Origin: Escherichia coli
GTDB taxonomy: Bacteria > Pseudomonadota > Gammaproteobacteria > Enterobacterales > Enterobacteriaceae
Length of the DNA: 64,000 nucleotides
NCBI RefSeq assembly: GCF_003019035.1
Contig: NZ_CP027447.1
Strand: one strand, 5' to 3'
Shown here piece after piece: positions 49,292 through 53,590 of the stretch (positions are counted from its first letter, which is position 1; every line of letters starts with the position of its first letter). The position numbers and the translations under genes were made by a program. A model generated the notes under the pieces. The model did not search any database. It was not told the DNA's origin and saw only the letters and a list, made by a program, of their open reading frames with translations.

Positions 49292-50685
49292 GCGGTACCC
49301 TCACGACGCGGTGCGCGTTTGCGTGGACGACGAGTACGACGACGCGGTGACGGTTCTTCATCCAGTTCGTTAAGCATCCCTTTTTGGTCTGGCGGCGCGG
49401 AAACCTGGAACTCACCCCACCATTTCACCAGACGTTGCAGTTCAGCGTTACGCTCAACTTCGGCTCGTAAGGCCAACAGGTCGTATGCCGCACGGAACTT
49501 AGGATGCTCCAGCAGTTTCCATGCGCGTTTTCCCTGACGACGGGACATACGCAACTGCAACTGCCAGATATCGCGAGTTAGCGTAGTCAGACGTTTCGGG
49601 ATCGCCAGTGAACGGCAGGCTTCGTCCAGCACGTCGTTCATCGCCAGTGCGAAAGCGTCGTGATAGGTCAGGCCGCTCTCCTGAGCAATTTTCTGTGCCG
49701 TCTCCAGCAGTGGATACCAGAACATGGCGGCAAACAGGAACGCCGGGTTCACGCGCATATCGTTATGGATACGCGTATCGGTATTCTTCAGCACCTGTTC
49801 AATGATCCGCTCCATCGGGCTGTCGCCATTTTCCGTGAAGTAGCGGGTAATGGTCGGGAACAGCGGCTGGAACAGATGATATTCACACAGCAGCTTATAA
49901 GTTTCGTAACCGTAGCCCGCTTGCAACAGTTTCAGCGATTCTTCAAACAGACGTGCCGGTGGGATATCGTTCAGTAAGGTTGCCAGGCGTGGGATCGGCT
50001 CGGCGGTTTCCGGGCTGATGCGCATGCCCAATTTGGCGGCAAAACGAACCGCGCGAAGCATCCGTACCGGATCTTCACGGTAGCGCGTTTCCGGGTTACC
50101 AATCAGACGGATAACGCCGTCTTTCAGATCCTTCATGCCGCCAACGTAATCACGGACGGTAAAATCTGCCACGCTGTAATACAGGCTGTTGATAGTGAAA
50201 TCGCGGCGCTGGGCGTCTTCTTCGATGGAGCCGAAAATGTTGTCGCGCAGCAACATACCGTTTTGCCCGCGTTGGGAGGTCGTGCGGTCGCTGACGTTAC
50301 CTTCGTGATGTCCACGGAAGGTCGCAACTTCGATAATCTCCGGGCCAAACATCACATGAGCCAGACGGAAACGGCGACCCACCAGGCGGCAGTTACGGAA
50401 CAGTTTGCGCACCTGCTCTGGCGTGGCGTTGGTGGTCACGTCAAAATCTTTCGGCTTTTTGCCAAGTAACAGGTCGCGCACGCCGCCGCCAACCAGCCAG
50501 GCTTCGTATCCCGCTTTATTGAGCCTGTACATTACCTTCAGGGCATTTTCACTGATATCTTTGCGGGAAATAGCATGCTGCTCACGCGGGATCACCGTCA
50601 CCTGTGGACGGGCGACTGCCTGTTCAGCCTCGCTTTCCTCGCGGCTTAGCACCTTGCGGCAAAAATTAGCGACTCGGGTAAAAAT
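49288..50685 (-). CDS. pcnB: Poly(A) polymerase I
   Basis: Start assigned to the AUU codon encoding the I of ...[10 protein letters not shown] (established non-canonical start), 465 aa; ORF-track frame extends 7 codons further upstream. Confidence 0.9.
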
Positions 50686-50744
50686 AGTACACCTCGGTAG
50701 TGTCAAACATCATTCAGGACAAAAAAATAGCGGCTAATCATAGC

Positions 50745-51641
50745 TCAGCATGACGCATTTGAGAATGTTGAATTTACAATTGCCGACTCAGGCACGGCAG
50801 TCAGCGTCCAGTTTTTGACGGCTGACTGAAGGATTTGCTCGACGCTGAAATCCTGCCAGTGTGTTTCTACCTGCTGACCCAGAAAATGAAGTGCCGCGAT
50901 TAACACCGGGCGCGGATCGCCTTTCGGCAACGCAGGCGCATGATTCTGCTTGGAAAGTTTAGCGCCTTGTGTGTTAAGCGCCAGCGGTAAATGAATGTAA
51001 TCTGGCACTTTCCAGCCAAAAAGCTGGTACAGCGAGATTTGTCGCACTGTCGGTTCAATCAAATCTGCCCCACGAACAATTTCTGTGACGTCCTGGAAGT
51101 GATCATCGACCACCACCGCCAGGTTATAGGCAAACAAACCATCACGACGATGAATAATAAAATCTTCTTGCGCCAGTTTTTCGTCGGCGTGAATAATTCC
51201 GCGTAGTTGATCAGTAAACTGCGTGACCGGATGCAACTGCCGAATTCGCACAGCCGCGTTGTCTGGTCCATGATGCAAATCCCGGCAATGACCGTCGTAA
51301 ATACCGCCAATGCTTTGAATACGCGCACGCGTGCAGGTGCAGTAATAACTTAGTCCTTGCTCATATAACCAGGCGAGTGCTTCGCGATAGGCGTGGTGAC
51401 GTTGCGATTGCCAGAGAACGTCGCCGTCCCAGTGCAGGCCGTAATGTTCCAGCTGGCGCAGGATAGTCTCTGCGGCACCGGGAACTTCACGAGGCGGGTC
51501 GATATCTTCTATGCGTACCAGCCAGCGACCTTGCCGGGCGCGAGCCTGTAAATAGCTGCCAAGCGCGGCAATCAGAGAGCCAAAATGAAGCTCGCCGGAA
51601 GGAGAGGGGGCGAAGCGACCAATATAGTGTGTGTCTGTCAT
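50745..51641 (-). CDS. gluQ: Glutamyl-Q tRNA(Asp) synthetase
   Basis: Start placed at [22 protein letters not shown] (298 aa) because the dksA terminator hairpin lies just upstream; a 308-aa form starting at 51671 is the alternative. Confidence 0.85.
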
Positions 51642-51650
51642 CTCTTTGAA

Positions 51651-51680
51651 CAAAAAATAAGGCGGGAGCATTTCCCGCCT
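51651..51680 (-). terminator. Intrinsic terminator downstream of dksA, upstream of gluQ
   Basis: On minus strand: ggcgggaaatgctcccgcc hairpin followed by TTATTTTTTG. Confidence 0.8.
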
Positions 51681-51707
51681 GTGGTAAACGTGATGGAACG
51701 GCTGTAA

Positions 51708-52163
51708 TTAGCCAGCCATCTGTTTTTCGCGAATTTCAGCCAGCGTTTTGCAGTCGATGCACAGATCGGCTGTCGGGCGCGCTTCCAGACGGCGAATACC
51801 AATTTCAACACCGCAGGATTCGCAGTAGCCGAAATCTTCGTCTTCCACTTTTTTCAGCGTCTTCTCGATCTTTTTGATCAGCTTACGCTCGCGATCGCGG
51901 TTACGCAGTTCGAGGCTGAACTCTTCTTCCTGGGCTGCACGGTCTACCGGGTCCGGGAAGTTGGCTGCTTCATCCTGCATATGTGTAACGGTGCGATCGA
52001 CTTCATCCCTGAGTTGATTACGCCATGCTTCCAGAATACGACGGAAGTGCGCCAGCTGGGCTTCGTTCATATACTCTTCGCCCGGCTTCTCCTGATATGG
52101 CTCCACCCCAGCGATGGCGAGAATACTCAGGGACGATGTTTTACGGTTTTGCCCTTCTTGCAT
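51708..52163 (-). CDS. dksA: RNA polymerase-binding transcription factor DksA
   Basis: Start at [15 protein letters not shown]; 151 aa; C4 zinc finger [25 protein letters not shown]. Confidence 0.96.
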
Positions 52164-52340
52164 GTTGCTTCTCCTTAACACGCACTATCGATCCCCATGT
52201 TCGGGGGAAAAATGAGGCCGCTATAAATAGCAGATGCTTTTCCGGATAGCAATTATCTAAACGTAACACTTGACAACTGTGTGAGGAAAAGCGTATTTGC
52301 GCACGCGACCAGAATGTAAATTAACCAGTTACTTACTCTA

Positions 52341-53590
<1,250 letters not shown>

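Follow-up and report, generated by a model that had tools for sequence, protein, structure and literature searches.

The junction between dksA and gluQ has been studied experimentally in Shigella flexneri, where RT-PCR revealed co-transcription of dksA with gluQ-rs (Caballero et al. 2012, BMC Microbiol 12:226, PMC3542578). In the same study a lacZ fusion without the dksA promoters gave baseline activity only, so that gluQ has no promoter of its own, and a fusion stopping at the dksA stop codon was about 10-fold more active than one containing the spacer. Point mutations that disrupt the predicted stem in this spacer raised the reporter more than 2-fold. The gain of the stem mutant is little over 2-fold against the roughly 10-fold of the whole-spacer deletion, and another part of the spacer may contribute.

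Here we describe the same locus and the same element in E. coli, a sister lineage, within a stretch of 64 kb that we refer to as the window. As in S. flexneri (PMC3542578), the window holds a hairpin with an AUG in its loop (the 'bulge') and a second AUG separated from it by 27 nt; the product has 298 aa, and its true start lacks an obvious Shine-Dalgarno (SD) sequence. Nothing in the window is mechanistically different; GluQ carries His5 instead of Gln5 (MTDTHY vs MTDTQY), and the hairpin energies are -14.7 kcal/mol (Mfold) in PMC3542578 and -14.5 kcal/mol (ViennaRNA) in the window.

The terminator between dksA and gluQ

The genes in this neighbourhood follow the order thpR-sfsA-dksA-gluQRS-pcnB-folK. 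The 1.55-kb dksA-gluQ region is 100% identical to that of E. coli strain SCU-301 and is present as a single copy in 5424 of 5426 complete E. coli genomes. The 77-nt spacer, which includes the first of the two ATG codons (ATG1), is the same in 4453 of these 5424 genomes, and the remainder carry 1-3 differences. From the dksA stop to the second ATG (ATG2) the spacer of the window measures 66 nt. The features, listed in the direction of transcription, are as follows:

51708..52163, minus strand: dksA coding sequence, 151 aa, stop TAA at 51710-51708; from the open reading frame list and RefSeq dksA of the 100%-identical SCU-301 record (1588-2043)
51692..51720, minus strand: weaker predicted hairpin across the dksA stop codon, from the minimum free energy (MFE) fold
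51681..51707, minus strand: variable spacer from the dksA stop to the hairpin, 27 nt, sequence not conserved
51660..51680, minus strand: terminator stem-loop AGGCGGGA-AATGC-TCCCGCCT, 8 bp with 6 G-C, 5-nt loop, -14.5 kcal/mol
51669..51671, minus strand: ATG1, pseudo-start in the hairpin loop, in frame, yielding the 308-aa database form
51650..51659, minus strand: T-run (U-tract) TATTTTTTGT, published Term-seq 3' end at about 51656
51639..51641, minus strand: ATG2, true gluQ start, 298 aa, 10 codons downstream of ATG1 and in frame, no Shine-Dalgarno
50745..51641, minus strand: gluQ (gluQRS/yadB) coding sequence, tRNA glutamyl-Q34 synthetase, 298 aa plus stop, PF00749, match to 1NZJ

The gluQ product has the properties expected of a GluQRS: a GluRS-like class I catalytic domain of about 300 aa with the HXGS signature (ELHFGS in the translation) and without an anticodon-binding domain, and its homologues carry PF00749 only. 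The N-terminus of such enzymes lies about 7-9 residues before the RFAPSPSG strand, and ATG2 is found 8 codons ahead of the R.

The first-pass annotation of the window had placed an intrinsic terminator between the dksA stop and the ATG at 51641. We could confirm these coordinates on the minus strand, with the hairpin at 51680-51660 and the T-run at 51659-51650. It had also described the terminator as lying inside the longer reading frame that opens at 51671; this is true from the loop through the 3' arm to the T-run (51671-51650), but the 5' arm (51680-51673) is located upstream of ATG1. The element has the canonical anatomy of an intrinsic terminator: a G+C-rich stem in the range of 5-12 bp with a short loop, directly followed on its 3' side by a U-rich tract (TATTTTTTG, T in 7 of 9 nt). 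While the hairpin folded alone reaches the -14.5 kcal/mol given above (ViennaRNA), the 91-nt spacer folds at -30.9 kcal/mol (z = -5.0 vs 200 dinucleotide shuffles). When both strands of the 64-kb window were scanned under strict settings (a stem of 7 bp or more with 6 or more G-C pairs, and 6 or more T among the 9 nt that follow), three sites were found against 0.2 +/- 0.4 in shuffled sequence, and the dksA-gluQ hairpin is among the three. The terminator hairpin thus exceeds chance expectation; a permissive scan (4 sites vs 4.2 expected) is uninformative by itself. The weaker hairpin at 51692..51720 has no covariation support in an alignment of 68 species and would be melted by translating ribosomes.

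Published data place the end of the dksA transcript at this element. The first-pass annotation had asked for transcript 3' ends at the hairpin as a check, and the Term-seq data of Adams et al. (2021, PMC7815308, supplementary files 1 and 3) contain such an end in MG1655, at 160097(-), supported by 3.1 million reads (LB, OD 0.4). Its Rho score is 1.16 (not Rho-dependent; bicyclomycin-insensitive) and its intrinsic-terminator score is 7.47 with a threshold of 3 (PMC7815308). The position is 15 nt from the annotated ATG1 start and corresponds to 51656 in the window, within the T-run and 4 nt past the stem. In the Term-seq table the end is classed as 'internal' to gluQ (PMC7815308), a label that the dksA terminator received because of the wrong 308-aa gene model. 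DirectRNA coverage at the site is 250 upstream and 62 downstream (PMC7815308), which suggests that roughly a quarter of transcription reads through to gluQ, a rough figure since it derives from 800-nt windows. For this terminator we found no published experiment in which purified RNA polymerase was assayed for termination in vitro.

An independent gluQ promoter was considered and rejected: the only sigma-70-like match near gluQ, at 51650-51621, is misplaced and would initiate transcription inside the coding sequence, and no promoter activity was seen in PMC3542578. The claim of the first-pass annotation that gluQ is co-transcribed with dksA and depends on terminator read-through agrees with the RT-PCR and reporter data (PMC3542578). 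It is highly probable that the element is a Rho-independent (intrinsic) terminator between dksA and gluQ, that gluQ is expressed through read-through only and translated from ATG2, and that ATG1 is no start.

Hairpin conservation and the question of regulated read-through

In order to compare the junction between species we took the gluQ locus from 80 Enterobacteriaceae species representatives and searched every locus for its dksA stop and RFAPSPSG motif. One locus without dksA in the fetched stretch (L042) and one with dksA but without an ATG at the ATG2 position (L081) were left out, giving a set of 79 species that consists of 78 fetched loci and the window. The best 120 matches of the protein search all belong to Enterobacteriaceae, and the hairpin comparison is confined to that family.

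The hairpin is the sole conserved block between the dksA stop and ATG2 in the 68-species alignment. Its stem core GGCGGG/CCCGCC (GGCGGGAG core) shows no variation in 77 of the 79 species. Covariation is seen in the pairs on either side of the core (A-T, AA-TT, CAA-TTG, TAT-ATA, CAG-CTG), and the first inner stem pair has changed from A-T to G-C in four species. The distance from the dksA stop to GGCGGG is 16-29 nt in 68/77 species, and in every case the hairpin lies 12-29 nt upstream of a gluQ AUG without SD. At least 6 T within the 10 nt after CCCGCC were found in 67 of 77 species. The other ten have a weak U-tract (at most 5 T in 10 nt) and still retain the hairpin: the Enterobacter hormaechei/cloacae group, Yokenella, Superficieibacter, Klebsiella oxytoca and Escherichia sp. 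ESNIH1. The U-tracts in the Enterobacter and Klebsiella versions of the spacer read TTGTTACCGT and TGGTTCTGTT. The dksA promoter/leader region is conserved to a similar degree as the stem core, and the invariance of the core is therefore not exceptional for functional non-coding DNA at this locus.

Is this terminator a fixed leak, or is it a regulated attenuator whose read-through responds to growth phase, stress, a protein or a small ligand? Some observations point towards regulation. In S. flexneri the RT-PCR signal of the spacer rose about 20-fold in stationary phase while dksA and gluQ changed about 1.3-fold, in a semi-quantitative assay, and a riboswitch-like or protein-binding mechanism was raised as a possibility by the authors (PMC3542578). 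The Term-seq counts at the 3' end differ 12-fold between two growth conditions, although these counts are unnormalised (PMC7815308), and the 6-bp core has been retained even where the U-tract is poor. We found no replication of the semi-quantitative RT-PCR by another method in the literature, however, and the structural hallmarks of such a device did not appear. RNAalifold on 68 species returned the terminator as the only helix outside coding sequence; the upstream sequence could not be aligned and no alternative helix covaries. The terminator is present in the MFE structure of 75/77 species. The Rfam scan of 50600-52500 (E <= 1) gave nothing relevant, only a chance snoRNA match in dksA, and there is no leader ORF. 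Taken together, RNAalifold on 68 species, Rfam and the ORF list yielded no antiterminator, aptamer or leader peptide that is conserved and mutually exclusive with the terminator. Regulated read-through at this site is thus unlikely. Of the suggestion in the first-pass annotation that the terminator is an attenuator tying gluQ to dksA, the leaky terminator stands, whereas the conserved alternative structure, leader peptide or riboswitch that would make it an attenuator was not found.

When the nascent RNA is folded without the 3' arm, the G-rich 5' arm pairs upstream in most species; we do not take this as an antiterminator because such pairing is expected of any G-rich segment. A conserved antiterminator was looked for and rejected: the predicted partner of the 5' arm in E. 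coli lies in the dksA coding sequence, involves the non-conserved CACAGG flank and is itself not conserved, and the helix is absent from the RNAalifold result.

A related idea, suggested by the invariance of the core, its retention next to decayed U-tracts and its constant place ahead of an SD-less AUG, is that the stem core could also be a sequence-specific site. It could, for example, bind a protein that adjusts read-through during stationary phase or osmotic stress, or be an operator for SD-independent initiation of gluQ. We regard this as quite unlikely. If it were true, the dksA-gluQ junction might be a regulated checkpoint joining the stringent response to tRNA-Asp modification.

The hairpin might instead be mainly an element of RNA stability or processing, with transcription ending further downstream and 3' exonucleases trimming back to the stem, which would protect the dksA mRNA. 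Term-seq by itself does not separate termination from 3'-exonuclease trimming back to a stable hairpin, and Adams et al. ascribe to processing the majority of the 3' ends that Supplementary file 3 lists in 5' UTRs and inside ORFs (PMC7815308). The end is found just 4 nt past the stem, which is below the typical U-tail of 7-9 nt and suggests at least some trimming, and the hairpin is retained in the species with weak U-tracts. Against this stand the intrinsic score above threshold, the canonical anatomy with 7 T in 9 nt and the 4-fold drop of DirectRNA coverage across the site. In addition, the lacZ fusions are transcriptional, reporting downstream transcription and not the stability of the upstream mRNA, and they rise on mutation or deletion of the stem. 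These data argue that termination is the primary event, and a mainly processing role is very unlikely; the two roles are compatible with each other.

The start codon of gluQ

Intrinsic termination with read-through into gluQ leaves two in-frame ATG codons as candidates for the start. The sequence around ATG1 resembles a start site: the SD-like AGGCGGGA precedes it and the predicted anti-SD duplex amounts to -6.3 kcal/mol for ATG1 vs -1.7 kcal/mol for ATG2. The same SD-like sequence is the 5' arm of the terminator stem, however, and the first four codons from ATG1 form its 3' arm, the hairpin covering positions -9 to +12 relative to ATG1. It is probably this occlusion by the hairpin that leaves ATG1 unused. 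The N-terminus of the 308-aa form reads MLPPYFLFK..., and the alignment with GluRS homologues begins at residue 17-19 of the 308-aa form, leaving the ATG1 extension without a match in GluRS. The structures in the PDB (1NZJ/4A91) comprise 298 residues, which match residues 11-308 of the 308-aa ORF over their full length (E = 7e-198). The 298-aa form is likewise the one used by RefSeq/PGAP (897 nt), whereas K-12 GenBank/UniProt still carry 308.

The species comparison separates the two codons clearly. An ATG 7-9 codons ahead of RFAPSPSG is present in all 79 species, while an in-frame ATG in the loop occurs in two only, the window (E. coli) and E. albertii. The loop is the most variable part of the hairpin; the position of the loop ATG is taken by ATA in E. 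whittamii and by TTA in AF16, an 'E. coli' isolate of only 94% identity, and other genera carry TCT, TTT, CTT, CAT, TCA, ACT and others. Escherichia sp. MOD1-EC7003 has kept the loop ATG, and its T-run is 1 nt shorter, which puts the ATG out of the gluQ frame. According to PMC3542578 the first AUG is also missing from E. fergusonii. In 12 of the 79 species a stop codon interrupts the frame less than eleven codons ahead of ATG2.

Initiation at 51671 in N-terminal protein data would have spoken against the first-pass annotation by its own standard; the direct protein evidence, which comes from two sources, favours it instead. Edman sequencing of S. flexneri GluQ-RS, made by T7-driven overexpression, gave TDTQYIGRFAP, the residues that follow the second Met of the 298-aa form (PMC3542578). 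In N-terminomics of E. coli K-12, b0144/gluQ is among the matches listed with an 'N-terminal truncation (10aa)', 308 -> 298 aa, and the initiator-Met peptide MTDTQYIGR (TRAINSPOTTER, NAR 2026, PMC13245402 Table S1). The Ribo-seq and Ribo-RET columns are blank in the b0144/gluQ row of that table.

That the 308-aa ORF from ATG1 (51671) is the real gluQ and the hairpin merely coding sequence is extremely improbable: in spite of its frame, its SD-like sequence with the stronger anti-SD duplex, its automatic calling in thousands of E. coli sequences (P0001, P0002) and the uniformity of the ATG1-containing spacer among E. coli genomes, both Edman and N-terminomics data give the second Met, ATG1 is missing or out of frame in AF16 and, overall, in 77/79 species (and missing from E. 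fergusonii according to PMC3542578), 12 species have stop codons inside the would-be extension, the dominant transcript 3' end lies 15 nt into the ORF, the SD-like sequence and first codons are locked in the -14.5 kcal/mol stem and the extension has no counterpart in GluRS. A minor 308-aa GluQ form may conceivably accompany the 298-aa form. The 298-aa ATG2 start is the real start of gluQ, as the first-pass annotation had proposed and as the Edman data (PMC3542578), the peptide MTDTQYIGR (PMC13245402) and the 79 species agree. ATG1 is an Escherichia-specific variant of a hypervariable terminator loop and no start codon.

In the read-through RNA the U-tract can pair with AAAGAGAUG, and the predicted probability of ATG2 being unpaired is 0.08. 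The weak helices involved contribute only about -3 kcal/mol, as obtained by difference from the total of the spacer fold, and we treat sequestration of the ATG2 start codon by U-tract pairing as unproven.

Expression by read-through and comparison with known systems

The published and present data show that most dksA transcripts end at the terminator, that gluQ depends on read-through and that ATG2 is its start, and the most probable mechanism is as follows. RNA polymerase coming from the dksA promoters transcribes the G+C-rich hairpin and the U-tract, where most complexes release, leaving abundant monocistronic dksA mRNA that ends in the U-tract. The minority that reads through is the sole source of gluQ mRNA, so that gluQ expression amounts to a fixed fraction of dksA transcription. 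On these read-through transcripts translation begins at ATG2 (51641). ATG2 has no SD and is found in A/U-rich sequence close behind the hairpin, which makes weak, SD-independent initiation probable; this fits a low-abundance enzyme. The spacing of 16-29 nt probably keeps the hairpin outside the footprint of the ribosome that terminates at the dksA stop, and translation of dksA should for this reason not suppress termination.

The terminator, the co-transcription and the true start have already been published, experimentally since 2012 and later backed by 3'-end mapping and N-terminomics, and the dksA-gluQ terminator as such has little discovery value. New are the confirmation in 79 species, the explanation of ATG1 as drift in the loop and the tracing of the 'gluQ-internal' Term-seq peak to a stale K-12 annotation. 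Our findings have value for annotation: the 308-aa model in K-12 GenBank/UniProt and in the automated calls for thousands of E. coli genomes is wrong. An in-frame ATG that arises by drift in a terminator loop can pass for a start codon, and conservation of the start across genera settles such false-start cases without experiments.

Beyond S. flexneri, the locus can be compared with two groups of known systems. In the trp, his and pyrBI leaders and in preQ1 riboswitches a terminator hairpin likewise precedes a coding sequence whose expression is governed by read-through, and preQ1 riboswitches are known in the queuosine-modification pathway, the pathway of gluQ itself. In contrast to these attenuators and riboswitches, dksA-gluQ lacks a leader peptide, a conserved antiterminator or aptamer and any Rfam match, and its hairpin follows a full-length gene and not a leader. 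The other group consists of the analogues cited in PMC3542578, T1 upstream of dnaG (rpsU-dnaG-rpoD) and the recA-recX terminator, where an intrinsic terminator also sits between co-transcribed genes. In both, the downstream gene lacks its own promoter and is expressed by read-through of roughly 10-25%, and dnaG also has a poor ribosome-binding site. The genes, however, are unrelated, and at dksA-gluQ the terminator loop carries a spurious in-frame ATG, which became the source of a long-lived database misannotation.

Gene models of GluQ and their effect on terminator calls

The 308-aa model of GluQ persists in large protein collections (the E. coli entries P0001 and P0002 of our protein search) as well as in the K-12 GenBank and UniProt entries; the form in RefSeq/PGAP and in the PDB is the 298-aa protein. 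The K-12 coordinates attached to this discrepancy are 160112 and 160082. Because the K-12 entries keep the 308-aa protein, Term-seq pipelines call the dksA terminator a ‘gluQ-internal’ 3' end.

In the read-through RNA the initiation codon of the 298-aa form, ATG2, is covered by predicted pairing with the U-tract of this terminator, with an unpaired probability of 0.08:

51639-51660, minus strand: predicted U-tract/ATG2 helix, UUAUUUUU with AAAGAGAU(G), from the fold of the read-through RNA

Estimated as the difference from the spacer fold total, its contribution together with that of the second weak helix comes to only about -3 kcal/mol.

Spacer variants in relatives

The dksA-gluQ spacers listed as variant among the Enterobacteriaceae species representatives are those of loci L012, L017, L020, L025, L054, L081 and L082. 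In several Citrobacter, Phytobacter and Buttiauxella species insertions of 25-130 nt separate the dksA stop from the conserved hairpin. These insertions carry strong additional hairpins, and some of them look REP-like (GCCGGATG...). A differing terminal hairpin, CGGGGAAAATTTCCCG, was found only in Phytobacter (L025) and in an Enterobacteriaceae MAG (L054).

Other terminator-like hairpins in the window

The dksA start is itself located downstream of a terminator-like hairpin, the second such hairpin besides that between dksA and gluQ:

52218-52233, minus strand: terminator-like hairpin CTGCTATTTATAGCGG followed by CCTCATTTTT (T-run to about 52209), sfsA-dksA intergenic region

By coordinate correspondence, the ‘orphan’ Term-seq 3' end reported at MG1655 160652(-) (Adams et al. 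2021, PMC7815308) falls at about window position 52211, directly after this hairpin. In a comparison of 77 Enterobacteriaceae species, conservation reaches 95% or more at most positions in the ∼130 nt 5' of the dksA ATG, the hairpin included. Two possible roles for the hairpin are termination of sfsA transcripts and attenuation in the dksA leader.

Under the strict terminator criteria only two sites pass in the whole 64-kb window besides the dksA-gluQ hairpin:

26097-26124, minus strand: terminator candidate, 12-bp stem TCTGGCGGAGCT...AGCTCCGCCAGA plus TTTATTTAC
19054-19073, minus strand: terminator candidate, 8-bp stem AGCCGGCC...GGCCGGCT plus CTTTTACTT

The start codon of pcnB

RefSeq annotates an ATT start for pcnB, whereas the mechanical ORF list offers a TTG at 50706 as an alternative:

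50683-50685, minus strand: pcnB (poly(A) polymerase I) start codon ATT, start at 50685

A non-canonical AUU start is known for pcnB.
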